From a virus, in IMG/VR virus record IMGVR_UViG_3300022927_000008, positions 45,774 to 109,773 of that record: a stretch of DNA of 64,000 bases; one strand, given 5' to 3'. The notes beneath the pieces are model-generated. The model did no database searches and was not told the DNA's origin. It was given only the letters and a program-made list of their open reading frames with translations. Within the stretch, counting starts at the first letter, position 1. Every line of letters starts with the position of its first letter. A program made the translations under genes and the position numbers. Positions 10,971 to 64,000 of the stretch are shown piece by piece.

Positions 10971-10987
10971 ATTTTAAAATTATTTTA

Positions 10988-12345: not shown

Positions 12346-12773
12346 TTTTTTTCTTCTTTAAACATACCAATATAATCAAGAGCTTCCATATAATCGTGTT
12401 CGGCAAAGTGTTTTAGATTTTGCATATCCATTTTATAAGTTTTTTCACTTTGATCTTCAGAAAGAGCTTTTACAGCAGCCCATCTCCATTCTTTAACATT
12501 TTTACCATCAGCATACACCATTCCTTTTTCAGGATTATTAGTAGCAGAAGGCATCCAATTTAAACCTTTATCATCTACATAAATAAGATCCTTATACAAC
12601 TCGGGAAGTATTTCTATTTGCTCACTAAGAAATGAACTGCCAGATTGCATTAAAGTATTAGTTGTAAATCCACACCCATAACATAAACTTATAACGTAAT
12701 CCGCCCCCATTTCTTGTTCGTAACAAGCATCGCTTCCACAACGAGGACATATTGTTAATTTATCTTTCAACAT
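12342..12773 (-). CDS. zinc-ribbon hypothetical protein
   Basis: CPRC...CYGC. Confidence 0.7.
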   Translation of the reverse strand: MLKDKLTICPRCGSDACYEQEMGADYVISLCYGCGFTTNTLMQSGSSFLSEQIEILPELYKDLIYVDDKGLNWMPSATNNPEKGMVYADGKNVKEWRWAAVKALSEDQSEKTYKMDMQNLKHFAEHDYMEALDYIGMFKEEKK

Positions 12774-14040: not shown

Positions 14041-15491
14041 TAATATTCTAATTTATGGGGTGTTACTTTTGGTTTTCTAGTGTCTATTTTGATTAGTTCA
14101 TACCTTTCTCGGGGCTTCCAATTTTTAAATAATGTATCTATATTATCTATAATACGGTAGGACATTTTTTCTGCAGTGAATCCTGCTTCATCACTTAGAG
14201 CCCACTTTCTTCCTATTTCTCCTTTAATTTTTCTTTCTTTAGCCCCCATTTCCCATACCTCAAATAATCTATTAGCGGCATCACTAGAATCACATCTATC
14301 ATCAAAAATATAAGGGGTAGGAGGGGAACCTTGGATTGAAATACTTGAAGGGAAAATAGGAAAGGCCCATTCTCCATGTTGGGTATATGTTTTTCTATGG
14401 TTTGAAGGTATTTTCTCATTAGGGGTAAACCATTTTCCTTTATTATCTATAAATCTCATTTGGTCTTGCATTCCCCCGGTAACATTAGCTACTATAGGGT
14501 TACCTACAAGTAAAGCTTCGGTTAAACTTAACCCCCACCCTTCATTAGATGTAAGTTGGATCTGAACATCAGAGCAATTATATAGAAAATTCATATGCTC
14601 AGTATCCAATTTATCCTCTACAAATAAAATGTTATACTTTTTATCATCCCCACACAAAGTTTCAATAACAGCAGGTAAATTGGTACCATTAGGATCTATC
14701 CTTTGGGTTTTTAATATTAGAAGACATTTCTCAGCTTGCTTGGGAGTAAGTTTATCAACGAATTGTTTATAGGCCCAAATAGTATCTGGTATCTGTTTAC
14801 GCCTAATGTTTCTAGAGTTGTAAAGGGTAACAAAATCATATTCTTTGCCTTTAAAAAGCTCAGTTTTAAACTCTTCAAGCTGAGTGGCTTTTTCGTGTGA
14901 TTTGTCGATAGGGAAAAATATTTTATGATTTAGCCCATGGGGAACATAAGAAATAATTTTATTTTTAGCTTTATCTCCTAATACTAATTTATTTATATTA
15001 ACAGTCTGTTTTGAAATGCCCATTAACAAATCACATGATTCATAATATTCTTTATTATACATTGGGGCTGGGAAGTCGTCCCAAATATTTAAATAAATAA
15101 TAGGAATATTTTGCCTAATTTCGTTTTCCATTTGAAACAACCAAGTCCAATATCTGGGGTCAGTAAATATAAAAATGGCATCAGGCTGCTCTCTTTTTAT
15201 AAAGAACCTCACTGCATCGGGGTTCCCATACCCATTACTAGGGTATATAGTTACTGAGGTGTCTTCTAATCCTGTTATTTTATTGGTTTCAGGGCTTAAA
15301 TCTATAATTTTTCCTTCTTCAGGGTGTTGTATTGCTGCTCCTATATTTACCCAATTATAGTGATGGCAGGTATGGAGCACCATTTCTTTGGCTATAGTCC
15401 CTATTCCCGAATGAGTCCTAATATCATCACACATTAGGAGTATCTTTTTACGTTCCTCTTTGGGAACATATCCTTTCATTTTCGTAACCAT
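14040..15491 (-). CDS. GT4 family glycosyltransferase
   Basis: RNIRRK and EGWGLSLTEA motifs. Confidence 0.9.
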   Translation of the reverse strand: MVTKMKGYVPKEERKKILLMCDDIRTHSGIGTIAKEMVLHTCHHYNWVNIGAAIQHPEEGKIIDLSPETNKITGLEDTSVTIYPSNGYGNPDAVRFFIKREQPDAIFIFTDPRYWTWLFQMENEIRQNIPIIYLNIWDDFPAPMYNKEYYESCDLLMGISKQTVNINKLVLGDKAKNKIISYVPHGLNHKIFFPIDKSHEKATQLEEFKTELFKGKEYDFVTLYNSRNIRRKQIPDTIWAYKQFVDKLTPKQAEKCLLILKTQRIDPNGTNLPAVIETLCGDDKKYNILFVEDKLDTEHMNFLYNCSDVQIQLTSNEGWGLSLTEALLVGNPIVANVTGGMQDQMRFIDNKGKWFTPNEKIPSNHRKTYTQHGEWAFPIFPSSISIQGSPPTPYIFDDRCDSSDAANRLFEVWEMGAKERKIKGEIGRKWALSDEAGFTAEKMSYRIIDNIDTLFKNWKPRERYELIKIDTRKPKVTPHKLEY

Positions 15492-15503
15492 TTTGTTTTT
15501 TTA

Positions 15504-15686
15504 TTATAAATCTAAACTATTGTGATTGTGGATTTGACGTTTAAAGTCTTCATCAGTAAGATACAAATGAACACAACGGTCAGCAAGTTTTTGAAAAGAA
15601 AACTTATGTCTAACACATGCTACTTTAAATTCTTCAAATAAATCACTTTGAATTTTTACGCTTGTTAATGTTAAATCTTTTTTCAT
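15504..15686 (-). CDS. ribbon-helix-helix-like small DNA-binding protein
   Basis: LTSVKI beta-strand followed by two helices. Confidence 0.6.
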   Translation of the reverse strand: MKKDLTLTSVKIQSDLFEEFKVACVRHKFSFQKLADRCVHLYLTDEDFKRQIHNHNSLDL

Positions 15687-15719
15687 AGCTAATATATTTT
15701 GATATAAATATTCGCGAAA

Positions 15720-16460
15720 TTAAAAAGATGTGTTTCGGGTATAACCCTCCTCAAAATGATCAACAGTTAACTTATTGATAAATACAGGTTTTAAATCATG
15801 TTGTTTCATCCAAGGGTTAACTCTATTATAAAAATTTATATCTCCAGGTTCACGTCTTCCATAAAAATATAAAGGGTCTCTTCTTCTTAAAGGTATAATT
15901 CTATAGTTAATACAAGTACTAGAATTAATTATATTAATAGGAGTTGGGGGGAGATTAGTATAAAGTTCTGGGGGGTTTTGGCGGGGTAAAACACCATTTA
16001 GGTATTTGGATTTAGTATAAAGAAATGGAGATTGAGTAGTTTCTATTGCTGTAGCTAAGGTTTCTAAATGATCAGGAAAATAAATATCATCGTGGTCTAA
16101 TTTACAGATATAATCATAACCTTCGTTTATAGCATATTCTATCCCTATGTTGGTACCGTGGGCACCCCCACTATGCCATAAATCCTCTCCTCCTTTAGGA
16201 TACCTTTTCCTTTCTACAGCCACTGGAAGGTTAATGGGTAGGGTTTTATTTGGGGGGCAAAGTTTAATTATTTGTTCAAATTCTGCTTTGTCTTTGTAAT
16301 TATCTCCTATTAAGTATATTTTCCAATTTTTATATGTTTGGTTAAAAACACTTTGTAAGGTATTTTTTATATAACTAAATGTTTTACCATCAGGTCTATA
16401 ATAAGTAGTTACAACTATTGCTAATTTAGGGTTACTATATTTTTTATTTATAAGTTCCAT
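15720..16460 (-). CDS. GT2 family glycosyltransferase
   Basis: NQTYKNW and LDHDD motifs. Confidence 0.85.
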   Translation of the reverse strand: MELINKKYSNPKLAIVVTTYYRPDGKTFSYIKNTLQSVFNQTYKNWKIYLIGDNYKDKAEFEQIIKLCPPNKTLPINLPVAVERKRYPKGGEDLWHSGGAHGTNIGIEYAINEGYDYICKLDHDDIYFPDHLETLATAIETTQSPFLYTKSKYLNGVLPRQNPPELYTNLPPTPINIINSSTCINYRIIPLRRRDPLYFYGRREPGDINFYNRVNPWMKQHDLKPVFINKLTVDHFEEGYTRNTSF

Positions 16461-17269
16461 AGTGGAATTCCTTTAAGGTTGGGTTCAATGTTTTTTTTCT
16501 TTTTAGCAGGAATTCCTATATAAACTCCACTATCTTTTATGTTTTTAATTACTACACTTCCTGCTCCTAATATTATATTATCTGATTGGAGTTCTATTCT
16601 AGGGTTTATGATGGTGGCACAACCTAAGAAACAATTATTAGATATCTTAACAGAACCCCCTATAGTAACATTATTAGCAAAATGTACATTTTCTCCAATT
16701 TTAGTTCCATGACCTATACAGCAACCAGGAGCTAAGTTAACATTGTCTTTTAAGGTTGTGTATTCATTTGCTGATCCTCTTACTATTGAAGTATTACTAC
16801 CAATAATACAGTTGTTTCCTATTTTAACTCCACCTAATTGTCTTAAAAAAACTTTAGTAGCCCCATCCCACACCCACATCATACCTTCGGTTCCAATACT
16901 GCAATTAGCATCTATCCTTGTTCCATTTCCTACTTCAGTTTTAGAATAAACTACAGAATTAGGGCCAATAATTACATTATCACCAATTACAACACCATCA
17001 CCAATTACAGCTGTAGGGTCTATAGAACAATTATCACCCTTAATATATGATTTTTTATCAAAAGTGTATGGGTATTTTACTTGATGGGATAACCTATAAA
17101 ATTCTAGTTGGGGATTTTTTACAATAACTTGTACTACATTATTTAATCCTTCAAATTTTTGTTTGCAAAATAATTTACAATTTTTTAAATGTTTTACATG
17201 TTCAGGATTATCACCTACATAATAAGTAATCATTCCTTCTTTAGTATTAGGTAAAATTGATAATATCAT
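16448..17269 (-). CDS. LpxD-like hexapeptide-repeat acyltransferase
   Basis: Left-handed beta-helix repeats; IGTEG, QLGGVKIG, IGHG. Confidence 0.85.
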   Translation of the reverse strand: MILSILPNTKEGMITYYVGDNPEHVKHLKNCKLFCKQKFEGLNNVVQVIVKNPQLEFYRLSHQVKYPYTFDKKSYIKGDNCSIDPTAVIGDGVVIGDNVIIGPNSVVYSKTEVGNGTRIDANCSIGTEGMMWVWDGATKVFLRQLGGVKIGNNCIIGSNTSIVRGSANEYTTLKDNVNLAPGCCIGHGTKIGENVHFANNVTIGGSVKISNNCFLGCATIINPRIELQSDNIILGAGSVVIKNIKDSGVYIGIPAKKKKNIEPNLKGIPLWNL

Positions 17270-17751
17270 TTATTGTCCTTATATTTTTTAGCGGGAATCC
17301 CATACCAAATTTCATCTGCAGGAATATCATTTCTTACTTGGGAATTAGCACCTATAATTGAATTATTTCCAACTGATGTATCAGGCATTAAGGTTACATT
17401 TGCACCAATTAGCACAAAATTACCTATACCTTTTACAATTTTTGTTGAATTTTCTTCAAGGTTTGGAGTGTCGGTTAATACAAACCCATATTTAATTACA
17501 CAATTTTTCCCAATAGTAGCGTTTGCTGAGATTGTGCATCTGCTTCCCATAGAGGTTCTATCACCCACTACGACGTTATTTCTAATTTCACAATAAGCAG
17601 TAAATGAACAATTCTTACCAATCTTCGCACCAGTCCTCACAATGCAAAACGGACCAATTTTAGTGTTATCACCAATTTCTACACCATCTTCTATTAGTGC
17701 TAGGGGATGAATTTCTACATTTTTACCTATTTTTGATTTGTTTGATATCAT
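17266..17751 (-). CDS. hexapeptide-repeat sugar N-acetyltransferase
   Basis: IG repeats and GIPAK C-terminus. Confidence 0.85.
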   Translation of the reverse strand: MISNKSKIGKNVEIHPLALIEDGVEIGDNTKIGPFCIVRTGAKIGKNCSFTAYCEIRNNVVVGDRTSMGSRCTISANATIGKNCVIKYGFVLTDTPNLEENSTKIVKGIGNFVLIGANVTLMPDTSVGNNSIIGANSQVRNDIPADEIWYGIPAKKYKDNK

Positions 17752-18377
17752 TTCTTATATATTTCAAATTTACTTAAATCGGGATAAGGTAGTTCCAAAT
17801 CTTCATTGTGTTTCTTACCACCACCCATTTCATAGAATTGTCCCATAAGTAACAACCCCCTAGCTGCAAGTTCCGGCATCATGTAAAAGTTCCAACCTAA
17901 CATATCAAAGTTATCTTCGTGATATGAACATTCTCTTCTTCCACTATATCTAGCTCTTTTAAACCATAAATAAGCCTCATGTGAGTCAGTTAATATAGCA
18001 CCACCTTTAGATAGCTTAAAATGTTTATAAGGTCCAGTGAATGAAATACACATATGTGTGTTAGGTAAATACATGTCTGCTGTAAATCTTAGAGCAGAAT
18101 CCCATACGTTAGAGCCCTCTAATTGGTATGCTCCTTTTATGGTCTTTCCTTTTACAGGTTTAAATTTAACTTTCCCCCCAGCATGAATAATTTCACAAGG
18201 GACTGATGGGTAGGTTCTAGAAGGAATAGTAATTTCTTTTCCTTCTATATTTTCATACTTTAAAGCTAAAAATAAAGCATTAGAAGCATTATCTACCGTA
18301 ATAGCATACCTTGCTCCTGTATAATCTGCGAGTTTGGCTTCAAACTCTTCAGTAATTTTATATATCCCGTTGGCCAT
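17748..18377 (-). CDS. DegT/DnrJ/EryC1/StrS-family aminotransferase, short form
   Basis: FEAKLADY, NASNAL, DSA, SFTGPYK, GGAIL, GWNFYM. Confidence 0.85.
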   Translation of the reverse strand: MANGIYKITEEFEAKLADYTGARYAITVDNASNALFLALKYENIEGKEITIPSRTYPSVPCEIIHAGGKVKFKPVKGKTIKGAYQLEGSNVWDSALRFTADMYLPNTHMCISFTGPYKHFKLSKGGAILTDSHEAYLWFKRARYSGRRECSYHEDNFDMLGWNFYMMPELAARGLLLMGQFYEMGGGKKHNEDLELPYPDLSKFEIYKK

Positions 18378-18379
18378 TT

Positions 18380-19009
18380 TTAATATTTAACTTTAATTAT
18401 AAATTCGTTGCTTAACTCTTTAGAAGCAGGTTTAGCTTTAAATTCATTTTTTAAAGTTCCAATTATTTCATAATTGGGGTCTAACTCTTTTACTATATGA
18501 TCTACAGCTGGTTTTACTTCAGGGGAGTGTTTAAAATCTAAGTAATCATCAAATATAATATAGCCTCCTACAGGAACTAAATCTTTATAGTTATAAAAAT
18601 CATCAATTACAGCTTGATAACTATGATCCCCATCAATAAACAAAAGATCAATTACAGGGAATTTATTTTTTACAATATTAATAGTAGAAAGATTACGAGA
18701 ACTACCTTTAAAGTATTCCCAAGTATTATGTTCCTTTTTATATTTAGCTACATTTGCTTTAGCTATTTCTGGGGGGATGGGGCTTCCTATATCAATAGAT
18801 AAGCAATTGGTAGGATAGGGGTGGGAGGTCATTAAACATGCTGACCCTCCAGCAAAACATCCTATTTCAACATAATTAATAGAATCTTTCCCTAAAAAAG
18901 TTCTTAAATCGTATAATATATGATAATGATGATGGAAAGTATGACTCTCCATATTATTTGAAATAAATTCAACTAATTCTTTAGACTCTTGAGTAATTAT
19001 TTGTTGCAT
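18380..19009 (-). CDS. class I SAM methyltransferase (Methyltransf_24-like)
   Basis: VEIGCFAGGS, LFIDGDHSY, GGYIIFDDY. Confidence 0.9.
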   Translation of the reverse strand: MQQIITQESKELVEFISNNMESHTFHHHYHILYDLRTFLGKDSINYVEIGCFAGGSACLMTSHPYPTNCLSIDIGSPIPPEIAKANVAKYKKEHNTWEYFKGSSRNLSTINIVKNKFPVIDLLFIDGDHSYQAVIDDFYNYKDLVPVGGYIIFDDYLDFKHSPEVKPAVDHIVKELDPNYEIIGTLKNEFKAKPASKELSNEFIIKVKY

Positions 19010-40227: not shown

Positions 40228-40686
40228 TTATTCAGCATAGATTGCTGTGTTTTTTCCGTGTTCTCTAAATTCTACTTGCATAACCTTAACACGTCCATCT
40301 GTTTCTTCTAATACAAACTTGTTAAGTTTCTCATAAATATACTGAGCAAAACGTTCTGCTCCAGTTGCTGGTATTTCTCTAAGTTGAATTACACCTGCTT
40401 CATCCATTCTACGAAATGATTCTAGGAATGGATCGTCTTCAGCTACAAGCATAGTATGATCAAACATATGGTCCATCCAAGCTTTAGGATTCATACCATC
40501 AATTTCGGTTTTAGCACGTTTCATACCCCCAAAATCCCAAACCCAATTACGTTCGTCTAGTTCCCCTTTAAACCATACTTTAAACGAGATTCCATAACCA
40601 TGGAGAAATCTACAATGTGTGCCTTCTGCTTTAGCTTGACGAAACACACAGCTAAACCCATCAAATACTTTAGTTGATATAAACAT
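40228..40686 (-). CDS. queD: 6-carboxytetrahydropterin synthase
   Basis: CRFLHGY, WVWDFG, FDH, TGAE, EH. Confidence 0.9.
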   Translation of the reverse strand: MFISTKVFDGFSCVFRQAKAEGTHCRFLHGYGISFKVWFKGELDERNWVWDFGGMKRAKTEIDGMNPKAWMDHMFDHTMLVAEDDPFLESFRRMDEAGVIQLREIPATGAERFAQYIYEKLNKFVLEETDGRVKVMQVEFREHGKNTAIYAE

Positions 40687-53042: not shown

Positions 53043-54206
53043 TCACTCCAATATACGAACAAGAGCATTAGCAACCAAATCTGGGGTTATAGATTTTGAG
53101 CATTCAAAATGGCGGGGGGTATCTTTATGGTGGGGACACCACTCCCAATCTCCTGCATCTAATTTATGAGTATTAAAACATCCACGGCATACATTAGAGG
53201 GGGCACTTATTCTTTCACAATTTTGGAATTCAGTATACTCATCACTAAATCCTGAGATAAGAATTGTAGGGGTATTTAAGGCCCAGCTAACCCAGGATAA
53301 ACCACTACCTGTTCCTACAAAAGCTTCAGCGTTAAAAATGTCTGTGAATCTATCTTGGAAAGAATAGTCACCTGTTTTATCTATTACATTTTGTAAGGTT
53401 CCTCCTAGTTTAGAATCATGCCAGCTATTTCCTAATTTTTCATAGGAAATCATAACTACTTTATATCCTGTTTCATTTAACCAATCAATTATAAGTTGCC
53501 ACCCCCCCTTATTATTCCAATAAGAAGCATGTTTGGTTCCATGGGGGGCTATAACAACATATTTTTCTTTTATATTGCGTTTTTTATTTTTAATAAAAAT
53601 AGAAGGTTTAATTTCTTGATATTGTAACCCCAATATGTCACTTGCAGTTTTTTGTAAGGGTTGGGTTTTTACTTCTTTTGGATTTTTATTTAAATTGATA
53701 TTTTCTTCTTCGTAAAACCATCCTACTCTATACATAGCATATAAATCATGCACTATAGTATTAGGTTCTACAAATTCAACATTAGGATATTCTTTTTTAA
53801 ACCAATCATTATGAAATGTAGAACACACAACTTTGCAATTATGTTGTTCTTGAAATTGTTTTATATAAGGAAACCATGCTAATGTATCTCCAATGGATTT
53901 AGAATCTAAATGAATATAAACTCTTTTATTAGTACAATCAAAAATATGTTCTTTTATTTTGTTTCCATTATTCCAAACTTCTACCCTCCACTTTATAAAA
54001 TATTGAGGGTTAGGGGAAGTCCACATGTTATTGCTAATAGTATCCTCCCATATAAGTTCATTAGTTTTATAATTAAAGAACTTAACTAAATATTTCTTAT
54101 CAAAAGAACCATTAATTTCAACTTTAGCTCCTTCAATGAAAGAAATATTTATTTTATTTTCATTAGTATTATAAGAAGCATTATAACTTAAATTATCGTA
54201 TATCAT
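53043..54206 (-). CDS. TibC/AAH-like (BAHT family) protein O-heptosyltransferase homolog
   Basis: YFIKWRVEV, SIGDTLAWFP, QPLQ, YWNNKGGW, GSGLSW, ISGFS and CxxC-x13-C-x11-C iron-finger. Confidence 0.9.
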   Translation of the reverse strand: MIYDNLSYNASYNTNENKINISFIEGAKVEINGSFDKKYLVKFFNYKTNELIWEDTISNNMWTSPNPQYFIKWRVEVWNNGNKIKEHIFDCTNKRVYIHLDSKSIGDTLAWFPYIKQFQEQHNCKVVCSTFHNDWFKKEYPNVEFVEPNTIVHDLYAMYRVGWFYEEENINLNKNPKEVKTQPLQKTASDILGLQYQEIKPSIFIKNKKRNIKEKYVVIAPHGTKHASYWNNKGGWQLIIDWLNETGYKVVMISYEKLGNSWHDSKLGGTLQNVIDKTGDYSFQDRFTDIFNAEAFVGTGSGLSWVSWALNTPTILISGFSDEYTEFQNCERISAPSNVCRGCFNTHKLDAGDWEWCPHHKDTPRHFECSKSITPDLVANALVRILE

Positions 54207-55144
54207 AATTTTTCTAAAATTAAATTTTTAGTTTGATTAACATCCCCATTTGTATATGATACTAAATTATTGTTATCATACTGGTTTAAGTAGGTGGGGA
54301 GTTTTCTCATCAGAATAGGGAGTTTGTAGGAAAGTGATTCTTTAACTACTAAGGGGTTTAACTCTAAAATACTACTAAAATAAAATAAATCAGCAGCTTG
54401 TAAAAACTTTTCTACATCATTTCTTTCCCCCCATACTTTACAGTTTTTAGGTTTATTTTTCATTAAGGGACCCCAATAATCTTCAAAATTACCTGCTTGG
54501 TTTCCTATAAAGTGGAATATTATATCTTTATCTGTAAGGTGTTTTGCAACTTCGAATATTTCACTTTGGTTTTTACCAGGGGTAAATAATCCTATATTAA
54601 TTATATGTTTATAACTAGGATCAAATCCTAATTCTTTTTGGTATTTTTCTTTATTAGGAATTAAATCCTCAATCGGATATTCCCAAATATCACAAGGAAT
54701 TTTTACTACCGATTCAAATCTATTTTTACTCCACTCAGATACTAAAATAAATTTGTCTGGTAGTGAAGATAATTGGTTAGGGTCAGTGTATGAAGAATGT
54801 GTAGTAGATAAAATATAATAAGAACGATTAGGTTTATTAAAAATTTTATCTAAAATAATAGTATCTATAAAATGCTCAGGAATTTCTTCAAAATGAACAA
54901 TATCAGGTTTTATATTTTCTATGTGTTGTAATAAAACCTGTTTATCTTCATAAAGGGTAATTAATTTATTTTCCCCTAGTAATTGTTTTATCTTATTTTT
55001 TTGAACAACGTATTCCCAACTTAAATCTTGATATTCTATTACATAAATGTTAAATTGAGATTTAAAATACTCTATTTTTTTTAAAAGATATTGTGGTAAC
55101 CCTCCTGTTGACAAGTGAGGAGTTACGTAAAGTAACTTTTGCAT
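54203..55144 (-). CDS. GT4-like glycosyltransferase
   Basis: PHLSTGGLPQ, GLFTPGKNQ, ELNPLVVKE; ATGA-coupled to the BAHT gene. Confidence 0.85.
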   Translation of the reverse strand: MQKLLYVTPHLSTGGLPQYLLKKIEYFKSQFNIYVIEYQDLSWEYVVQKNKIKQLLGENKLITLYEDKQVLLQHIENIKPDIVHFEEIPEHFIDTIILDKIFNKPNRSYYILSTTHSSYTDPNQLSSLPDKFILVSEWSKNRFESVVKIPCDIWEYPIEDLIPNKEKYQKELGFDPSYKHIINIGLFTPGKNQSEIFEVAKHLTDKDIIFHFIGNQAGNFEDYWGPLMKNKPKNCKVWGERNDVEKFLQAADLFYFSSILELNPLVVKESLSYKLPILMRKLPTYLNQYDNNNLVSYTNGDVNQTKNLILEKL

Positions 55145-55181
55145 AACATTTAATATAATAATTTTAATTTAAAAAAACAAA

Positions 55182-56615
55182 TTAAAGTTTATTTAAAGTA
55201 AGTGTGTGAGAATGAAACATATACCTAGTGCTAGAGGCATTTGTGGTGCTCTTTGCTCCTATAATAAGGAGGTCCCCCTTAGATAGGGATTGGGGTTGGT
55301 AGTTAACACTTCCCGTTACAGGAAAAGAACTATCAGAAGAATTAAATTCTACACTAGCACTAGTAATTATACTCATATTAGGGTTTCCAGAAGAAGGTTG
55401 GCTTCTAATAACAAGGAAATCATGAGATTGACCTTGATATTCTGCAGCAGTAACATCACTGGTGGGTTGGGAAGAAACATAAGCTCTAACGGCAAGGTTT
55501 ACATTATAAGTTCCATCTTCGGGGACAACATATCCTGCTTTCATGTAACTTCCTGCACCTGTAGTAAGAGTAGTAGGGGAAGCTAATGAGTACATATCAA
55601 AAATACCAATACTATAACCATACTGCCTACTGCCCATATAATGGTAATATTGATCAGTTGTAGTACTTAACAAGGTTTGTCCTGAGTTCGCGAATGTTGT
55701 TTTTACATGTATAGCTGCTAAAGACGCAGATACACTACCCCAATCATCTATAGTGATATCGCTTCCTGTTATTTCACCTGTGGGTCCATGTAAAAATATA
55801 GTGCCAGTTCCAAATTTATTATTTATTTGAATTAGACCCCCTAGATTGGTAGTTCCAGGGTTGTCTGTTCTAATAATTACATAAGGATTGGTTCCATTAC
55901 TAAGTACAAAACTAGCGTTTTCAGTAGGAGTGGTTTGGGGGTTAGTATCTTTTATTTCAATAGAATGACTAGTAACTGTAGAGTAAAAATCAGAATAGGC
56001 ACCATGATTATGCGCCATGTCTACCATATCAACCTCGGTATTAATATTCCTTGATATAGCAAAAGTTAATTGACCATTTACTCCTTGTGTAGCACTAGGG
56101 ACATCATTTACTCTAGTTTTAATACGAGCAATAGAACCTGTAGTTGTGATATCATTAAAAGAAGCACTGTCAATTACAAAATTAATTATTCCTGCTTCAT
56201 CACCTACTTGTGCTCCTACAGATTCACGGCTGGAGCGGATAAGTAATTCTGTTCCTCTACTATTTTCTATTTTGGATTTTATATCAAATGCTTTAATAGG
56301 CTTTTCACTTGTACTAAACCCAATACCTATGCGTGGCTCATTATTACTACCAGTTGCAGATATTTTAAATATTGGTTCTCCTTTTGAAGTATTATTTTCT
56401 GGGGAGGGTACTCTAAATATTAATTCACCTGAGGAGCCGGTTTGGTCCGCACTGGTAATGATAGCTTCTATAGAGGCAACTGAGGATGTTGTTAAAACAT
56501 TCGAACTGGTTGCAGGGGAATATACAAAAAATATTCCTGGGATGGAAGATGTTGTGGGTAATGTGTACGACCCTGTGCTTCCTAGAGCTATTCCTATTGC
56601 AGAACCAAAAATCAT
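55182..56615 (-). CDS. putative virion/tail fibre protein
   Basis: Ser/Thr/Gly-rich beta protein with RIGIG; C1q-like end (YVVPEDGTY). Confidence 0.6.
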   Translation of the reverse strand: MIFGSAIGIALGSTGSYTLPTTSSIPGIFFVYSPATSSNVLTTSSVASIEAIITSADQTGSSGELIFRVPSPENNTSKGEPIFKISATGSNNEPRIGIGFSTSEKPIKAFDIKSKIENSRGTELLIRSSRESVGAQVGDEAGIINFVIDSASFNDITTTGSIARIKTRVNDVPSATQGVNGQLTFAISRNINTEVDMVDMAHNHGAYSDFYSTVTSHSIEIKDTNPQTTPTENASFVLSNGTNPYVIIRTDNPGTTNLGGLIQINNKFGTGTIFLHGPTGEITGSDITIDDWGSVSASLAAIHVKTTFANSGQTLLSTTTDQYYHYMGSRQYGYSIGIFDMYSLASPTTLTTGAGSYMKAGYVVPEDGTYNVNLAVRAYVSSQPTSDVTAAEYQGQSHDFLVIRSQPSSGNPNMSIITSASVEFNSSDSSFPVTGSVNYQPQSLSKGDLLIIGAKSTTNASSTRYMFHSHTLTLNKL

Positions 56616-56616
56616 A

Positions 56617-57147
56617 TTATATAAATAAATATGTTCCCTTTACCATTTTTGCTCCTCCTCTAACAGCTAATCTACATGAAAAAGTTTTAGTAGAATCATT
56701 ATAAGTAATATTATTATAATCTACAGTGTCATTTCCCAACATTGAATAGGGTTGAGGAGTAGTATAAGTAATATTATTAGGACTAGCGACATTTAAAGGC
56801 GTATATTTAAAACTTGAATGGGTTGAATTGTCAGGTCTAATTATAGCAATTTGTTCAAACCTAATAGGTTGGGTCCCCCCAACAAGATTAGTAAGTGTAT
56901 TAGGTAGTTGGCGGGGCATTACTATCCCTTTTACATGAAGGCCTATAGGGACAAAGTTTAAAGAATCAGGAATAACTTCTAAATACACAATGGGAGTAGT
57001 ACCTGCTGATCCTCCGGCAACGGTATAGTTTATAAAGGCTTTTTGGGTAGTATAGGGTTGCTCAAATGAAGAGGATACATATAACCCCTCCCCACTAACA
57101 TCATTATATGCTATATTTAATTGGTTAAGTGTTTTTAAATTTCCCAT
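56617..57147 (-). CDS. putative virion structural protein
   Basis: Beta-rich; ends KGTYLFI, similar to its neighbour (RGNYLMY). Confidence 0.55.
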   Translation of the reverse strand: MGNLKTLNQLNIAYNDVSGEGLYVSSSFEQPYTTQKAFINYTVAGGSAGTTPIVYLEVIPDSLNFVPIGLHVKGIVMPRQLPNTLTNLVGGTQPIRFEQIAIIRPDNSTHSSFKYTPLNVASPNNITYTTPQPYSMLGNDTVDYNNITYNDSTKTFSCRLAVRGGAKMVKGTYLFI

Positions 57148-57157
57148 AATTTTTAAT

Positions 57158-57775
57158 TTAATACATTAAATAGTTTCCTCTAACTATAAAAGGATCAAGT
57201 TGTTTACTCATCCACCATTTTAATTGAAATGTTTGGTTAAGGTTATTATAAACTATATTAAATGTTTGGGTGGGGTTTCCTGCATTATCATAATAACCAG
57301 CAGGATCTACTGCATTAAATAGATTCCAATCCCCTTCCTCGTTAAAATGGTCTTCTTTAAAACTAAAAGGGTAATTTATACCCTCAGAGGATACAGCTCC
57401 TTCTGTGTATTCATCACCATTACTAGCGTGGGTAACAGCAGATGATATCATTGTAAAAGTAAAAGGACCTGTGTTGAAATTAACACCTATAGGTTCAACA
57501 GAAATAAACATTTCTAATATATTAGCCCCAATTCTATCAGGATCTCCAAAAGCTAAAGCTTGGTCTTCAGCAAAAGTGTTAGCAAATCTATATCTTGAAA
57601 TTTCAAATATAACAGATCCAGTATAATCATTACCAAGGGGGTAATCTTGGTCATTATCAGGGATATAAACTGTATTATAAAAAGACCCATACAAAGGATT
57701 ATATACATAATTTACATTATCATTTATACTAGAACTAGCAATAGCAATTTCATGATATAAAGGGGAATTTATCAT
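57158..57775 (-). CDS. putative virion structural protein
   Basis: Beta-rich ORF in the structural block. Confidence 0.55.
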   Translation of the reverse strand: MINSPLYHEIAIASSSINDNVNYVYNPLYGSFYNTVYIPDNDQDYPLGNDYTGSVIFEISRYRFANTFAEDQALAFGDPDRIGANILEMFISVEPIGVNFNTGPFTFTMISSAVTHASNGDEYTEGAVSSEGINYPFSFKEDHFNEEGDWNLFNAVDPAGYYDNAGNPTQTFNIVYNNLNQTFQLKWWMSKQLDPFIVRGNYLMY

Positions 57776-58476
57776 ATATATTCAATTATAGTTCTTATGT
57801 TTCGTGTACTCCCAGGTGGTGGAACAGTCATAATCCCCGCTATATATATAAAATCATTACTAGATGTGTCTACTTCATTATCTACCATTCCTGATGAAGA
57901 TGGATCTCTTCCTACATAAAAATAAGGGGGGCCTTGAAACATGTTATTATAAAAAAAATATGTAGTAAAATCTGTATTGATGGGGGAGGTTATTAAATTT
58001 AGTTGGAAATTTGTAGGGTTAGTTAACGTAAGATCTGTGGGGGTTGTTACTGAATTGTCTCCTTCTAGTGTAGAAGGGAGTCTTCCTATTATTTCAAAAA
58101 TTGCATTATCATAGAATCCTCCTTGATTATTAGAATTGCTATCGTTATAAAAATACATATACCCTTTAAAAGCTGATCTATAGGGCTTGGTAGAGGTGGT
58201 TCCTTCTTTAATTATGGGGAATTTTGCAAAAATGGATAGGGTTGTTGAATTCGAAGTTATTATTCTATTGCAACAATATTTTTGAGAGGAAAATGGAAAA
58301 ACTCCATCATTTCTGTCTGTAAATGCTGAGGTGTTATCATTGGTGAATTGTTCATGTATTAAGTTAGAGTAATTTAAGGCCTGTATATTACTACCACCAC
58401 CCTCACTTTTAGCAAAAATATACTTACTTTTTTTGGGGTGTAAATTTAGTTTATCAAATACAGGGGAACTACTCAT
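57772..58476 (-). CDS. putative virion structural protein
   Basis: ATGA-coupled start at MSSSP. Confidence 0.55.
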   Translation of the reverse strand: MSSSPVFDKLNLHPKKSKYIFAKSEGGGSNIQALNYSNLIHEQFTNDNTSAFTDRNDGVFPFSSQKYCCNRIITSNSTTLSIFAKFPIIKEGTTSTKPYRSAFKGYMYFYNDSNSNNQGGFYDNAIFEIIGRLPSTLEGDNSVTTPTDLTLTNPTNFQLNLITSPINTDFTTYFFYNNMFQGPPYFYVGRDPSSSGMVDNEVDTSSNDFIYIAGIMTVPPPGSTRNIRTIIEYI

Positions 58477-58958
58477 AACAAAATATATTTTAAACAATAA
58501 TAAACATTATCAATATCATATTGATAAATTTCAAAATTTAAACCCCCATTACTATCAAAAGAACCCGTAACCCTTTTTATGTCATAAATAACCTTATCTT
58601 CGGGATATCTAACATCTTCTACAGTACTGCTTACTAAACTATCTCCTGAACTTGAGTCCCATATTAAAGTGGTACGCATAGCTTGGTGTTGGGTATAAGA
58701 TCCTTGAGTTACGGCATCACATTCAATTCGTGCATATCCAAATTCTCCCGACACATTTTGGGGATAATTAGTAGGATCTAAAGTAATATTAATAGTGTAA
58801 ACTCCGGGACCATCATTAGGACCCGCACATATATATCCTTCATTATTTCTAAGGTCAAATTCTTTTTTTTGGTTATCCCATACCACATAAGAAGAAGGAG
58901 GGGGGCTGCATGCATCAAGTGGTACTATAACATTATGTCTTGTTGTTCCTTGAGCCAT
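58473..58958 (-). CDS. putative virion structural protein
   Basis: Preceded by the ATATTTAT motif. Confidence 0.55.
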   Translation of the reverse strand: MAQGTTRHNVIVPLDACSPPPSSYVVWDNQKKEFDLRNNEGYICAGPNDGPGVYTINITLDPTNYPQNVSGEFGYARIECDAVTQGSYTQHQAMRTTLIWDSSSGDSLVSSTVEDVRYPEDKVIYDIKRVTGSFDSNGGLNFEIYQYDIDNVYYCLKYILL

Positions 58959-58986
58959 TTATTATAAATATTAAAATTATATAGAT

Positions 58987-60099
58987 TTATTCAAATCTAT
59001 CAAGTTCAGCATTATAATTTTGTGTAACTTGATTTGCACTAAGGGCAAAATCATACATTCTTACTATAGCAATTTTTCCTTTAAAATATTGAGATGTATA
59101 TGTTCCTATTCTTACAAGAGGGTTATAGAGCAAAGTTGCTGTAGTGTCAATATTTAATGATGAAAAAGTGTTTGTTAAGGATCCATTTTTGTACACTTTA
59201 ACAGTATTATTAGCACCATCAATAGTTACTACTAAGTGCATCCAAGGTCCAGGGTTCCCTGTAGTTAGGGGTGGGAAAAAATTATTGATGGTATTACTAT
59301 AATTTGTAGTTGAACCTTCGATATTAACTCTAAGATCTCTACCACTAGTACCTTTTTTAGTTAGTCTTACATGTCTAGAGAATGAAGTCATTAGTATTTC
59401 TTCTTCAACATTATTATCACGGTTACGATCTGATGCTAACCATATTTCTATACTAGATGTATTAAGATTTTGAAATCTATATATGGCCGCAGTTGCTTCA
59501 CTTGAGTCGGGGTCAGGGGAAAGATATTTAACAACTCCACCAGTGGCTTGGATAAAATCATCTGTTCCATCCAACCCTAAATATTTAGCACTTCCTGTAG
59601 TATCATATAAAGGACCATTAGCAAATATTGCAGCTAAACTTCCTGTAAGTTCTATTTCAGTACCTCCTGCTATAAGGGGGGTACCTGTACCACCAAGGGG
59701 TAATACGGTATAAGTAGTTCCAGGGTCATAATTATCCAAAGATTGCCATAAGGGTCTATTGGCTTGGGAGGGATTCCCACTAACATTAGGATTAACATCC
59801 CCCCAAAGTTGAGATCCTGAATCTTCAGCATCTAAGTGGAGCATTAGGCCTGTAGTAACATAATCAGGGGTGTTTGAAGAGGGTATAAAAGAATGGGTTC
59901 CTAATAATTCTACATAAGTTTTACCTACTAAACTTTCAGTAACATATGAGGAATTTAAAGCCACATAATTTTGACTTAATAAATTAGTACTACCAATTTG
60001 ACCCTTTAATAAAGTATTTGTAATAAAACCTTGTTGTTCAATTGTAATAAATCCTGTTACAGACTCTGATTTGTATGTTGCATTTAAGTTTAAAGTCAT
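58987..60099 (-). CDS. LamG/concanavalin A-like lectin domain virion protein
   Basis: GLMLHLDA, LDGTDD, WMHLVVT, YKNG, GKIAIVRMYDFALS...QNYNA. Confidence 0.85.
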   Translation of the reverse strand: MTLNLNATYKSESVTGFITIEQQGFITNTLLKGQIGSTNLLSQNYVALNSSYVTESLVGKTYVELLGTHSFIPSSNTPDYVTTGLMLHLDAEDSGSQLWGDVNPNVSGNPSQANRPLWQSLDNYDPGTTYTVLPLGGTGTPLIAGGTEIELTGSLAAIFANGPLYDTTGSAKYLGLDGTDDFIQATGGVVKYLSPDPDSSEATAAIYRFQNLNTSSIEIWLASDRNRDNNVEEEILMTSFSRHVRLTKKGTSGRDLRVNIEGSTTNYSNTINNFFPPLTTGNPGPWMHLVVTIDGANNTVKVYKNGSLTNTFSSLNIDTTATLLYNPLVRIGTYTSQYFKGKIAIVRMYDFALSANQVTQNYNAELDRFE

Positions 60100-61085
60100 G
60101 TTATTCCTGCAACTAAGCCATGAGTAGGAGCAAAGTGTTGATAAACTTGGTTTACTTCGCTGTCTGAAAGGAAACGGTTATATACTAACATTAGTGATGA
60201 TTCAAAACTAGAGGCATCATCATGAGTAGTAACCAGACCCCATGCATTGGTAGAACCAGCGGTTGCAAATTCATAAGTTTTGTCGAAGGTTGCTTGGGTT
60301 TTAATATTAGCACTATATTCAGGATCATCACTCCAATTCCAAGTTACTTGGTTTTTCCCTATAACTTTTATATCAATGTCTTCACCCGCTCCAGACTTTG
60401 CAGTTATTCTTATGACCAACATATGCCATTCTGAAGTGTCGATAAGAAAAGAATCAGTAAAATAATTGTAAACTCTAGGGATAGTACCAGTCATACCTAC
60501 TGGAACATCGACATGTAAATGGTCTGAGTTAGGGTTAGGCCCTCTGCTTATTCTGTATCTTTGATTAGGGCTGCTGGAGGCATTACGGTATATATACTCA
60601 TCGGGGTTTATATTAACATTACGTATCCACATTATATGGGTTACAGGATCTGTGGTTGCGAAATCTAAAGTATTGTTAACATTTATGTTATCCATAAATT
60701 TATTATTATCAAATTTAAAGTACCTTACACTATACTTACCATTTTCGGTAATACCAAAGTCGTTAATAGTAGGATTTTCTGAAGGATTGTTTATATTTTC
60801 AAAAAATAGAGTATAATCATGTTCTTCGGGAGATTGATCTTTATATCGCTTATAGTATCCAATAAAGGTAGTACTTGAAGCATGACCATCATACGTGCTT
60901 AAATTACTACCTGTTGCTTGAGAAACTATAAAAAGGTATAATCCATTTGTAATTAAAGGAACAGGGTCATAAGGGATATCATGTCTTGCTTTTAAGAAAA
61001 CATTTCGACCATGTTGACCTCTAAGTTGGACATTCCTAATATCCCCTTGAAGAAGAATTTTATCTTTACCTAATAAATTACCCAT
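60096..61085 (-). CDS. divergent LamG-like lectin domain protein
   Basis: TNGL, WHML, VYNRFLSDSEVNQVY. Confidence 0.7.
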   Translation of the reverse strand: MGNLLGKDKILLQGDIRNVQLRGQHGRNVFLKARHDIPYDPVPLITNGLYLFIVSQATGSNLSTYDGHASSTTFIGYYKRYKDQSPEEHDYTLFFENINNPSENPTINDFGITENGKYSVRYFKFDNNKFMDNINVNNTLDFATTDPVTHIMWIRNVNINPDEYIYRNASSSPNQRYRISRGPNPNSDHLHVDVPVGMTGTIPRVYNYFTDSFLIDTSEWHMLVIRITAKSGAGEDIDIKVIGKNQVTWNWSDDPEYSANIKTQATFDKTYEFATAGSTNAWGLVTTHDDASSFESSLMLVYNRFLSDSEVNQVYQHFAPTHGLVAGIT

Positions 61086-61091
61086 TTATTT

Positions 61092-61511
61092 TTAGACTCT
61101 TGATGCAGAGGGGAATAAAGCTTTATTTAGGGTAAAGGTACCTCTAGATACTACTACACTATTTTCTCCATTACTATCTGCTAAAACTAATTCATGTTCG
61201 TATGTAGCGTTAATTTCGTCTGCATCAGAATCCAAGTTATCTGTTAACCATCCAAAATCATCTTTAGTTATTGAAACTAAAAATTTATTATCAGGTTGGT
61301 ATGCAATTCCTCCTTCACCACTAAAATCACTAGCTCCAGTTGTTTTTACTATTCTTTTAGTAGTATTTGAATTTGCAATTCCGGTAGGTACAGGGCCCGC
61401 TGACCAATAAGCTTTATAAGTGGATATGTCCCCCACATCAGTAGTAATAGTAAATTGAATAGTGAAAGTATCATATGCATACTTTGTAAAATTTTGATTT
61501 AAAGAAGCCAT
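61092..61511 (-). CDS. BppU-like / baseplate adaptor-type beta-sandwich protein
   Basis: DTFTIQFTI...YEHELVL...SRGTFTL. Confidence 0.55.
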   Translation of the reverse strand: MASLNQNFTKYAYDTFTIQFTITTDVGDISTYKAYWSAGPVPTGIANSNTTKRIVKTTGASDFSGEGGIAYQPDNKFLVSITKDDFGWLTDNLDSDADEINATYEHELVLADSNGENSVVVSRGTFTLNKALFPSASRV

Positions 61512-61539
61512 AATGTTGTAAGTTTTATTTATAAATATT

Positions 61540-64000
61540 TTAAGTTATTGTTACCGATGGAGAAATTACAATTGCGGGATCATCATATTTTCTTACTTGG
61601 AATAAACATTTAAAATCTACATCAAAAGATAAATTATTTGTAAGTTTTACAGTAATATCGTCATCAGCAGGGTTATCTGTTAATTCTACACATATTTCAT
61701 TAATTTTTATTGGGAGGAATCCAACATTAGAGTCTCTTCTAATCCCATTAAAATCTGTTATATCTAAATAATAGGTAACATCATTAGTTCCACTAATATT
61801 AGTAAAGGCATCACACTCTAGTTGTATAGTTAATGCAAGATAACTTGCTCCTGTAGCATTAAATACTATAATTCCTTCTATATGTATGGAATCTTGAGTA
61901 TCAGTGGGAACTATACTAGATATTACTCTACTACCGCCTGAAAATAAAGTAGTTTCAGTAGACCAAACTTCTGATATAGAAGTACCACTAGTACCTGAGG
62001 TACCTGAAGAACCGGAAGTACCGCTTGAGCCTGAAGTACCTGATGAGCCACTAGTACCTGAGGAACCTGATGTACCACTAGAGCCTGAGGTACCTGAAGA
62101 ACCACTAGTACCTGATGAGCCTGAAGTACCTGAGGAACCTGATGTACCGCTTGAACCTGAGGTACCTGAAGAACCACTAGTACCTGAGGAACCTGATGTA
62201 CCACTAGAGCCTGAGGTACCTGAAGAGCCGCTAGTACCTGATGAGCCTGATGTACCTGAGGAACCTGATGTGCCACTAGAGCCTGAAGTACCTGAAGAAC
62301 CACTAGTACCTGAGGAACCTGATGTACCTGAGGAACCTGATGTACCTGAGGAACCTGATGTACCGCTTGAACCTGAGGTACCTGAAGAACCACTAGTACC
62401 TGAGGAACCTGATGTACCTGATGAACCACTGGTACCTGATGAGCCTGAAGTACCACTTGAACCTGAGGTACCTGAGGAACCTGAGGTACCTGAAGAACCA
62501 CTAGTACCTGAGGAACCTGATGTACCTGAGGAACCTGATGTACCGCTTGAACCTGAGGTACCACTAGTACCTGATGAGCCTGAAGTACCACTAGAGCCTG
62601 AGGTACCTGAAGAACCACTAGTACCTGAGGAGCCTGATGTACCACTTGAACCTGAAGTACCTGATGAGCCTGATGTACCTGATGAACCACTGGTACCTGA
62701 TGAACCTGAGGTACCACTTGATCCTGAGGTACCACTGGTACCTGAGGAACCTGATGTACCTGAAGAACCACTAGTACCTGATGAGCCTGATGTACCTGAT
62801 GAGCCTGATGTGCCACTAGTACCTGATGAGCCTGATGTACCTGAGGAACCTGATGTACCTGATGAGCCTGAGGTACCGCTTGAACCTGAAGTACCTGAAG
62901 AACCACTAGTACCTGATGAGCCTGATGTACCTGAGGAACCTGATGTACCGCTTGAACCTGAGGTACCTGATGAACCTGAAGTACCTGATGAACCTGAAGT
63001 ACCTGAGGAACCTGATGTACCACTGGAGCCTGATGAACCTGAAGTACCTGAGGAACCTGATGTACCACTAGAGCCTGATGAGCCTGATGTACCTGATGAA
63101 CCTGATGTACCACTAGAGCCTGAGGAACCTGATGTACCACTGGAGCCTGATGAACCTGAAGTACCTGAGGAACCTGATGTACCACTAGAGCCTGATGAAC
63201 CTGAAGTACCTGAGGAACCTGATGTACCACTGGAGCCTGATGAACCTGATGTACCTGAGGAACCTGATGTACCTGAGGAACCTGATGTACCACTGGAACC
63301 TGATGAACCTGATGTACCTGAGGAACCTGATGTACCTGAGGAACCTGATGTACCACTGGAACCTGATGAACCTGATGTACCTGAGGAACCTGATGTACCA
63401 CTGGAGCCTGATGAACCTGATGTACCTGAGGAACCTGATGTACCTGAGGAACCTGATGTACCACTGGAACCTGATGAACCTGATGTACCTGAGGAACCTG
63501 ATGTACCTGATGAACCTGATGTACCACTAGAGCCTGATGAACCTGATGTACCTGAGGAACCTGAAGTACCTGAGGAACCTGATGTACCGCTTGAACCTGA
63601 GGTACCTGAAGAGCCGCTAGTACCTGAAGAACCACTAGTACCTGAGGAACCTGATGTACCACTAGAGCCTGAGGTACCTGAAGAGCCGCTAGTACCTGAT
63701 GAGCCTGATGTACCTGAGGAACCTGATGTACCACTGGAACCTGATGAACCTGATGTACCACTAGAGCCTGATGAACCTGAAGTACCTGAGGAACCTGATG
63801 TACCACTGGAGCCTGATGAACCTGATGTACCTGATGAACCTGATGTACCTGAGGAACCTGATGTACCACTGGAACCTGATGAACCACTTGTACCTGAAGT
63901 ACCTGATGATCCTGAAGTACCTGATGTACCTGATGAACCACTTGTACCTGAAGTACCTGATGATCCTGAAGTACCTGATGTACCTGATGAACCACTTGTA
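61540..64000 (-). CDS. giant Gly-(Ser/Thr)-Ser repeat fibre protein, 5'-truncated by the window (true frame; replaces track ORF 61923..63995)
   Basis: Frame reads GTSGSSGTSG... through the repeat, then a ~146-aa unique domain ISEVWSTET...PSVTIT ending in TAA at 61540-61542. Confidence 0.9.
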   Translation of the reverse strand, partial: TSGSSGTSGTSGSSGTSGTSGSSGTSGTSGSSGTSGTSGSSGSSGTSGSSGTSGSSGTSGSSGSSGTSGSSGTSGSSGSSGTSGSSGSSGTSGSSGTSGSSGTSGSSGTSGSSGTSGSSGTSGSSGTSGSSGTSGSSGTSGSSGTSGSSGTSGSSGSSGTSGSSGTSGSSGTSGSSGSSGTSGSSGTSGSSGTSGSSGSSGTSGSSGTSGSSGSSGTSGSSGTSGSSGTSGSSGSSGTSGSSGTSGSSGTSGSSGSSGTSGSSGTSGSSGSSGTSGSSGTSGSSGSSGTSGSSGSSGTSGSSGTSGSSGSSGTSGSSGTSGSSGSSGTSGSSGTSGSSGTSGSSGTSGSSGTSGSSGTSGSSGTSGSSGTSGSSGTSGSSGTSGSSGTSGSSGTSGTSGSSGTSGSSGTSGSSGTSGSSGTSGTSGSSGTSGSSGTSGSSGTSGSSGTSGSSGTSGSSGTSGSSGTSGSSGTSGSSGTSGTSGSSGTSGSSGTSGSSGTSGSSGTSGSSGTSGSSGTSGSSGTSGSSGTSGSSGTSGSSGTSGSSGTSGSSGTSGSSGTSGSSGTSGSSGTSGSSGTSGSSGTSGSSGTSGSSGTSGSSGTSGSSGTSGSSGTSGSSGTSGSSGTSGSSGTSGSSGTSGSSGTSGSSGTSGSSGTSGSSGTSGSSGTSGTSGTSISEVWSTETTLFSGGSRVISSIVPTDTQDSIHIEGIIVFNATGASYLALTIQLECDAFTNISGTNDVTYYLDITDFNGIRRDSNVGFLPIKINEICVELTDNPADDDITVKLTNNLSFDVDFKCLFQVRKYDDPAIVISPSVTIT
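61981..64000 (-). repeat. 9-bp-period tandem repeat encoding GTS/GSS triplets (about 224 units in the window)
   Basis: Units such as ACCTGATGT/ACCTGAGGA/ACCACTAGT with synonymous third-position variation. Confidence 0.97.

Follow-up and report, generated by a model that had tools for sequence, protein, structure and literature searches.

What does an enzyme related to those that decorate bacterial autotransporters do in the genome of a phage, close to a protein that consists for hundreds of residues of glycine, serine and threonine only? This question is raised by the last 64 kb (64,000 nucleotides, positions 45,774 to 109,773; hereafter the window) of a viral contig of 109,773 bp, IMG/VR record IMGVR_UViG_3300022927_000008. 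Towards its end, the window encodes a bacterial autotransporter heptosyltransferase (BAHT) of the TibC/Aah type, a GT4-family glycosyltransferase coupled to it and, at the far side of a block of fibre genes, a collagen-like protein with a long (Gly-Ser/Thr-Ser)n array (Table 1). Our answer is that the acceptor of the BAHT/GT4 module is probably the phage's own proline-free collagen-like fibre, a reading to which we assign a probability of about 0.62. The fibre appears as the best-supported target because the BAHT is real, the GT4 is paired with it, and the co-occurrence of enzyme and repeat is positive in both phages and bacteria.

The product of 53043-54206(-) is a true BAHT by sequence, fold and catalytic residues. 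It matches TIGR04414 (hepto_Aah_TibC; autotransporter strand-loop-strand O-heptosyltransferase), a curated NCBIfam equivalog with a cut-off of 200 bits, at 306.5 bits over profile positions 9-373 of 374, and a six-frame search of the genome reproduces this match. The crystal chains of TibC (4RAP/4RB4) are matched over residues 25-378 with an E-value of about 1e-50 (3e-50 for 4RAP). An initial sequence-only reading of this DNA had claimed the hallmark motifs of TibC and AAH and had proposed a structural comparison with TibC. All the motifs are in place (SIGDTLAWFPY, YWNNKGGW and the iron finger C340-R-G-C343-x13-C357-x11-C369), and the AlphaFold2 model, built on 22 homologues (predicted local distance difference test, pLDDT, 91.2; predicted template modelling score, pTM, 0.88), agrees with TibC 4RB4/4RAP in Foldseek at a TM-score of 0.85 and a root-mean-square deviation of 2.6 Å over ~377 columns. 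The runner-up folds, the GT9 lipopolysaccharide (LPS) heptosyltransferases WaaC and WaaF, reach a TM-score of only ~0.5. The domain order is an N-terminal beta-barrel, itself covered by the superposition, a GT-B catalytic domain and a Cys4 iron finger.

For TibC, Asp110 has been described as the catalytic base, Thr226 and Lys230 as ligands of the beta-phosphate, Arg286 as contacting adenine N1 and Trp305 as contacting heptose O4 (PMC4358343). Asp107 of the window BAHT aligns with Asp110, its Thr224, Arg286 and Trp305 correspond to T226, R286 and W305, and its Cys340/343/357/369 align with Cys339/342/358/370 of TibC, all four being retained. The catalytic Asp is invariant in an alignment of 34 non-redundant BAHT domains from phages and two plasmid references (34/34), and the iron-finger cysteines occur in 33 of the 34; the domain of locus L174 lacks all four. 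The position associated with D,D/L,D-heptose selectivity, Pro300 in TibC and Ser in Aah, is a Gly here. By genomic context the locus departs from the family, as the window holds no autotransporter with a beta-helical passenger; this classical arrangement is seen at the E. coli plasmid locus L293.

The proposed acceptor is encoded at the very end of the window. Its visible part contains 115 GSS and 109 GTS triplets, together 672 residues with 339 Ser and 109 Thr, i.e., 448 hydroxyl residues, which agrees with the at least 670 residues and about 450 acceptors of the sequence-only reading. Gly occupies each third residue through 224 consecutive triplets, as in a collagen-like sequence, and the protein matches Pfam Collagen (PF01391) with an E-value of 2e-95. 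The array is composed of Gly, Ser and Thr only and thus contains neither the proline or hydroxyproline nor the charged pairs that stabilise a triple helix. If triple-helical, the visible array would be ~190 nm long (0.286 nm per residue), a minimum because the N-terminus lies beyond the contig end. The contig stops within the Gly-Ser/Thr-Ser repeat, so that the 5' end of the gene is absent; the label 'giant' given to the fibre is not borne out for the gene as a whole, of which 819 amino acids can be seen. After the array, the same frame continues into a unique, non-repeat C-terminus of 146 amino acids in which no trimerisation or other known domain is recognised. This domain has no homologues among proteins of 450-1434 amino acids and three weak matches only in a library of 1.84 billion representatives, and its AlphaFold2 model is unusable (pLDDT 34.8). 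Two further open reading frames (ORFs) run over the repeat, 61904-64000(+), rich in Pro/Glu/Val, and 61923-63995(-), rich in Val/His/Gln. Each has its start or its stop at a border of the repeat, and both were rejected as shadow ORFs. The Gly-Ser/Thr-Ser frame is genuine, because only that frame enters the unique domain and has homologues. Shadow ORFs of this kind pose a mis-annotation risk for gene callers.

By gene order, the GT4 is the functional partner of the BAHT, since the pair is conserved and, in several phages, fused. The ATGA overlap that joins the GT4 gene to the BAHT start, already pointed out by the sequence-only reading, is read directly from the sequence. A scan of IMG/VR for BAHT relatives yielded 33 loci, 25 of which carry a homologue of the window GT4 directly upstream (~44% identity), and homologues with 40-49% identity adjoin or are fused to a BAHT in 32 phage loci. 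Single GT4-BAHT polypeptides are encoded by L006 (714 aa), L028 (1016 aa), L030 (760 aa) and the Microcystis phage Mel-JY01 (1226 aa). FkbM methyltransferase domains occur within or beside the GT4-BAHT clusters of relatives.

Co-occurrence of BAHT genes and Gly-Ser/Thr-Ser repeats across phages, a check named by the sequence-only reading, proved strongly positive in both directions. On the repeat side, IMG/VR records were picked by a (G-[ST]-[ST])4 DNA pattern alone, with a Gly-Pro-X collagen pattern as the control, and the parent records of at least 16 kb were then searched for TIGR04414. A BAHT above the cut-off was found in 25 of the 66 repeat-picked records and in none of the 65 Gly-Pro-X-picked ones (Fisher p = 3.6e-9; 17/42 vs. 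0/43 in the first batch and 8/24 vs. 0/22 in the second). Five of the repeat-picked records reach at least 90% completeness, and four of these have a BAHT match. On the BAHT side, the (G[ST][ST])4 pattern occurs in 15 of the 33 BAHT-bearing viral records, which are mostly small fragments, and in 14 of the 18 that exceed 55 kb, with no hits for a reversed-pattern control. The carriers range from a complete genome of 69 kb to genomes of 299 kb, plus a megaphage of 735 kb. BAHTs are rare among GenBank phages (merely 4 of 50,697 records), and the Flavobacterium phage immuto, a relative of the window phage, has neither a BAHT nor the repeat pattern.

The two elements are also close together. The distance between BAHT and repeat is at most ~15 kb in 13 out of 18 positive records from the repeat-side search. 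The gene order fibre, small protein, GT4 (with or without a second GT4) and BAHT recurs in L295, L118, L047, L028 and Mel-JY01, the BAHTs of which are 41-57% identical to that of the window. In L005, a BAHT fusion is immediately followed by a protein of 678 amino acids with GTS/GSS Collagen repeats and a Peptidase_S74 chaperone, which is a trimeric tail fibre. Mel-JY01 (L002, PP395634.1) has a plus-strand open frame of 1016 amino acids at 1-3052 that includes 219 residues of Gly-Ser/Thr-Ser repeats; PP395634.1 annotates minus-strand 'hypothetical proteins' there, which resemble shadow ORFs, and leaves the fibre beside the GT4-FkbM-BAHT protein unannotated.

The association extends to bacteria. 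In a set with one genome for each GTDB species, an alignment-based scan brought up at least 578 BAHT relatives, the best 80 of which were examined; a single-sequence scan of the same genome set gave no matches. Where the bacterial BAHT is at least 36% identical to that of the window, a (G[ST][ST])n ORF is present at 22 of 31 loci, within 3 kb in 19 cases; of the nine loci without one, five are on contigs no longer than 6 kb. Below 36% identity (Burkholderia, Pandoraea, Selenomonadales and others of the classical type), only one of 49 loci has such an ORF (Fisher p = 1.5e-11). On the bacterial side, the repeat belongs to small lipoproteins or secreted proteins, in which a signal peptide or lipobox precedes a (GTS)n or (GSS)n stretch. 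Adjacency of repeat and BAHT spans Methylococcales, Arenicellales, Bradyrhizobium, Pseudobdellovibrionaceae and Burkholderiaceae, and it can be the only or the main genomic location of the repeat: all 31 pattern matches in a 3.9-Mb Methylococcales genome and six out of seven in a 5.2-Mb Arenicellales chromosome lie beside the BAHT. Secreted proteins of this type in Methylococcales, Arenicellales and other Proteobacteria (e.g., at L308, L321, L318, L296 and L301) often end in poly-Asp. The BAHT-adjacent (GTS)n/(GSS)n proteins may represent a class of bacterial surface glycoproteins that has not yet been described. In eight contigs assigned to bacteria through metagenome-assembled genomes, the phage-type GT4 is present as well; these contigs probably represent misbinned phage sequence.

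A quick FastTree phylogeny, rooted on an E. coli BAHT and containing several long branches, unites all phage BAHTs with the repeat-linked bacterial ones in a single clade (SH-like support 99) and separates them from those linked to autotransporters; 30 of the 31 rows labelled for the repeat fall in this clade. Taken as gene content and gene order, these counts show that, in phages as well as in bacteria, the clade of the window BAHT has a genomic link to Gly-Ser/Thr-Ser/Thr repeat proteins. One could still suppose that BAHT and repeats are independent traits of a broad group of aquatic phages and that the enzyme has another, unrecognised substrate. Many of the positive records may indeed be related, the control set is of another phage type, and there are exceptions in both directions. 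Such an absence of any functional link is nonetheless very improbable in our view, given the immediate adjacency in phylogenetically distant bacteria, the confinement of the repeat to the vicinity of the BAHT within bacterial genomes, and a range of phage carriers from 69 kb to 735 kb.

That the phage glycosylates its own fibre, as the sequence-only reading had it, is thus strengthened by co-occurrence and synteny, its target still being deduced by comparative genomics. Several observations weigh against it. The support consists of associations throughout; the phage records are partly related, so that their counts are not independent, and the Gly-Pro-X control set is not matched to them in phage type or in completeness. 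At the level of the enzyme, Lys230 of TibC is replaced by Ser, with a Lys three residues earlier ('GTKHAS' vs. 'STxQAK'), a change that among the 34 aligned domains is common only to the window BAHT and L003 (79% identical); moreover, Phe265/Val266 at the thumb tip of TibC are not conserved in a pairwise alignment. At the level of the acceptor, a (GTS)n triple helix is hypothetical. Neither GmhA nor an RfaE-type kinase or a cytidylyltransferase-like enzyme was found in the available 74% of the genome. Some members of the clade have no strict repeat close by: none lies near the BAHT in L297 (Methylomicrobium lacus) or L303 (Methylomagnum), and the megaphage LR756504.1 has no strict Gly-Ser/Thr-Ser array anywhere in its 636-kb genome. 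These three are useful exceptions with regard to acceptor specificity. Finally, 6.4 kb and eight genes separate the fibre from the enzymes in the window, and the GT4-BAHT enzymes of L004, L006, L029 and L030 abut a tail sheath gene instead.

One alternative is that the BAHT/GT4 module glycosylates, instead or mainly, other virion proteins, such as the tail sheath or the Ser/Thr-rich non-repeat proteins of 55182-61511. The location of GT4-BAHT genes directly upstream of the tail sheath and tube genes in L004, L006, L029, L030 and L118 fits this idea, as do the several proteins with 21-26% Ser/Thr between the window fibre and the enzymes. Classical BAHT substrates are, furthermore, folded beta-helices and not threads (PMC4358343), and in mycobacteriophages the proteins that are glycosylated belong to the capsid and the tail tube (Freeman et al. 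2023, as cited in PMC12619734). The capsid and tail-tube genes of the window phage fall in the missing 26% of its genome. What this alternative leaves unexplained is that chromosomal members of the clade, in genomes without a sheath, adjoin GTS-repeat lipoproteins, and that selection for the repeat alone raises the share of BAHT carriers from 0/65 to 25/66. We consider this alternative unlikely.

The block in which these candidate acceptors reside (55182-64000) is encoded on the minus strand throughout. Its nine genes are tightly packed, with gaps of 0-37 nt, and lie upstream of the GT4 and BAHT in transcription order, which upholds the description of the BAHT as directly following a structural block with Ser/Thr-rich fibres. 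No terminator-like sites were found between the fibre-block genes and the GT4/BAHT pair in a scan that performed no better than on shuffled sequence; as the sigma-70 promoter and terminator scan resembled that of shuffled sequence, it has little bearing on co-transcription. The protein of 139 amino acids that follows the fibre is the counterpart of the small protein that separates fibre and GT4 in L295, L118, L047 and L028; this analogy is one of position, as no sequence homology to the small proteins of these relatives was detected. Elsewhere in the block, the protein of 370 amino acids (21% Ser/Thr) matches Laminin_G_3 (PF13385; 1.6e-12) and the 'virion structural protein' family phrog_8510 (5.4e-17). 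The five genes at 55182-58958, the longest product of which contains 26% Ser/Thr, have no matches in Pfam, PHROG or NCBIfam. They are presumed to encode fibre or virion proteins and are possible additional acceptors.

Table 1. Features of the window that relate to the proposed glycosylation system (window positions; aa, amino acids).
Feature	Position	Strand	Basis
TibC/Aah-family protein O-glycosyltransferase (BAHT), 387 aa	53043..54206	-	TIGR04414; 4RAP/4RB4; AlphaFold2 model; aligned residues
GT4-family glycosyltransferase, 313 aa	54203..55144	-	PF00534 (3.7e-12); phrog_2170
Five packed genes, 161, 241, 205, 176 and 477 aa	55182..58958	-	ORFs, composition
Two fibre-block proteins, 329 aa and 370 aa	58987..61085	-	second: ConA-like lectin domain
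Ser/Thr-rich (22%) protein directly after the fibre gene, 139 aa	61092..61511	-	ORF list
Proline-free collagen-like fibre protein (C-terminal 819 aa), proposed acceptor	61540..63999	-	Pfam Collagen; continuous frame
Repeat array, 224 uninterrupted triplets	61978..63993	-	script count; Tandem Repeats Finder, period 9/18 over 61979-63993
Distal glycan cluster	10194..19009	-	Pfam: three GT2, RgpF-like, two GT4, two hexapeptide acyltransferases, DegT fragment, sugar O-methyltransferase

Besides the BAHT and GT4, the window contains about a dozen glycan genes, at 1252-2391 and 10194-19009(-), with four GT2 genes across both regions. The DegT fragment among them (209 amino acids) covers only positions 24-97 of a 360-position profile. 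The distal cluster at 10194-19009 is possibly part of the same glycosylation system; in L005, GT4 and GT2 genes with N-terminal similarity, judged by eye without an alignment, lie at most 10 kb from the BAHT and the collagen fibre. These distal genes could serve to extend the glycan or have an unrelated purpose. A glycan-gene set of this size is observed here in a lytic-looking phage.

The abundance of LPS-type GT2, GT4 and RgpF genes also suits a view in which the enzymes act on the host, on its LPS or on surface proteins including Gly-Ser/Thr-Ser lipoproteins, to block superinfection or remodel the envelope. Host modification is the usual reading in the literature of glycosyltransferases near phage tail-fibre genes (PMC7029224), and bacteria do have their own secreted GTS-repeat proteins paired with this BAHT clade. 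Yet known BAHTs are cytoplasmic protein O-glycosyltransferases and not LPS enzymes, the phage's own repeat of at least 672 residues sits in the same tightly packed block, and the fibre-GT4-BAHT microsynteny recurs across phages of widely differing genome size. Action on the host is quite improbable on this balance. A role in DNA glycosylation was set aside in view of the fold and residues of the BAHT, which are those of a protein O-glycosyltransferase, and of its linkage to a repeat protein.

Which sugar would be transferred? The sequence-only reading had suggested a new donor, as many Bacteroidota lack heptose in their LPS. For the window phage this case is weakened: the adenine-contacting Arg286 is kept together with the Thr226 and Trp305 equivalents, and D-beta-D-heptose-1-phosphate adenylyltransferase (TIGR02199) is found above the cut-off in 40 of 101 sampled Flavobacteriales genomes, which makes host-supplied ADP-heptose a plausible donor. 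A heptose pathway encoded by the phage itself was sought and not found. No gmhA was found in five BAHT phages, and only sub-threshold matches to PfkB-like kinases and small CTP_transf_like proteins occur in two complete BAHT phages other than the window phage. Among the 34 aligned BAHT domains, 14, each from a phage, have T, I, L or V in place of the Arg that contacts adenine N1; judging from this substitution, these enzymes may use a different nucleotide carrier.

If the fibre is indeed the acceptor, the BAHT and GT4 would form a two-enzyme cytoplasmic module for protein O-glycosylation that acts late in infection. In the cytoplasm, before or during fibre assembly, the BAHT, with Asp107 as the base, would move the sugar from an ADP-activated donor, most likely ADP-heptose of the host, to a large number of Ser/Thr hydroxyls along the repeat. 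As it retains an intact iron finger, the element on which TibC relies for assembly, the BAHT probably forms a finger-dependent ring oligomer as well (a dodecamer in TibC). The GT4 would extend or complement the glycan, perhaps together with the other glycosyltransferases and the methyltransferase of the phage. The expected product is a densely glycosylated, extended fibre of at least about 190 nm if triple-helical, in which the sugars might stand in for hydroxyproline as a stabiliser or stiffener, or else shield the fibre; anti-adsorption is a further possible role put forward by the sequence-only reading, beside a glycan shield and a stiffened spacer. A bolder scenario goes further: a BAHT clade of tailed phages and bacteria would have switched its acceptor from beta-helical autotransporters to proline-free Gly-Ser/Thr-Ser threads, the phage ring enzyme and GT4 would processively coat a fibre of hundreds of nanometres, and O-glycans would take over the helix-stabilising role of hydroxyproline. 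We offer this full scenario as a tentative one and, taken as a whole, regard it as rather doubtful.

The remainder of the genome gives some indication of the carrier. The contig is 74% complete according to CheckV, no terminal repeats were detected on it, and nearly all window genes lie on the minus strand. Its sole DNA-level relatives among GenBank phages are the Flavobacterium myophages vB_FspM_immuto, with 71% identity over the ribonucleotide reductase genes; the phage is an uncultured, Flavobacterium-type one. On the 3' side of the BAHT, a replication block starts with a DNA polymerase fragment, a gp32-like single-stranded DNA-binding protein, a RecA-like protein, a flap endonuclease, DnaB and ribonucleotide reductase. 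The polymerase ORF (51786-53042(-), 418 amino acids) begins right after the BAHT stop and matches only positions 962-1231 of the 1445 positions of the PHROG DNA polymerase family; the polymerase gene may be split or incomplete. Further away, at 38804-41522(-), a 7-deazaguanine precursor set of a radical-SAM QueE-like protein, a PTPS/QueD-like protein and QueC suggests that the phage DNA is deazaguanine-modified.

How does the proposed system compare with known ones? The TibC-TibA and Aah-AIDA-I pairs of E. coli share with the window BAHT the fold, the domain order, the catalytic Asp and the equivalents of Thr226, Arg286 and Trp305, and there, too, the enzyme gene is linked to the gene of a highly repetitive, Ser-rich acceptor. 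Such a linkage implies hyperglycosylation of many hydroxyls on one protein. In contrast to TibC and Aah, the window BAHT is phage-encoded without an autotransporter, belongs to a separate clade with only ~30% identity, and differs from TibC at the Lys230, thumb-tip and Pro300 positions already described. Its partner is a proline-free Gly-x-y thread instead of a beta-helix, and the enzyme has a GT4 as its neighbour or fusion partner, joined in relatives by FkbM methyltransferases. Phage collagen-like tail fibres with Peptidase_S74 have exactly the architecture seen in L005, whereas the C-terminus of the window fibre matches no known domain.

Glycosylated collagen-like proteins are known elsewhere. 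BclA of the Bacillus exosporium carries O-linked rhamnose oligosaccharides on GPT repeats, the sugars of the Gly-X-Thr(Gal) cuticle collagen of Riftia stabilise a triple helix without hydroxyproline, and Mimivirus has glycosylated collagen-like fibrils. Like the proposed window fibre, these are Gly-x-y proteins with sugars on Thr or other hydroxyls; they differ in their unrelated glycosyltransferases and in repeats that contain Pro or Lys. To our knowledge, none of the three involves a BAHT or a tailed phage. In full-text literature searches, no paper came up that describes phage BAHTs, or BAHTs with collagen-like or Gly-Ser/Thr-Ser repeats as their substrates. A phage precedent is that of mycobacteriophages, whose glycosyltransferases have been shown experimentally to O-glycosylate their own structural proteins (Freeman et al. 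2023, Cell Host Microbe, as cited in PMC12619734). These systems rely on other enzyme families, modify the C-terminal tails of capsid and tail-tube subunits and not a collagen-like fibre, and belong to phages of Actinobacteria (PMC12619734).

If the fibre is glycosylated as proposed, protein O-heptosylation, so far a virulence trait of a few enterobacterial adhesins, would reach environmental phages and many non-pathogenic bacteria, and the BAHT family would gain a second acceptor motif that is simple and predictable. Phages would have a second, mechanistically different virion glycosylation system of their own beside that of mycobacteriophages, and it would become questionable to annotate glycosyltransferases near tail-fibre genes by default as modifiers of host LPS. 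Microcystis phage Mel-JY01 is a cultured carrier of the cassette, in the form of fibre, structural protein and GT4-FkbM-BAHT. A proline-free, glycan-stabilised collagen-like rod would also be of interest for biomaterials. For the biology of these phages and bacteria, the bolder and rather doubtful scenario of an acceptor switch would mean a new class of glycan-dependent collagen-like virion fibre along with a new family of bacterial surface glycoproteins.

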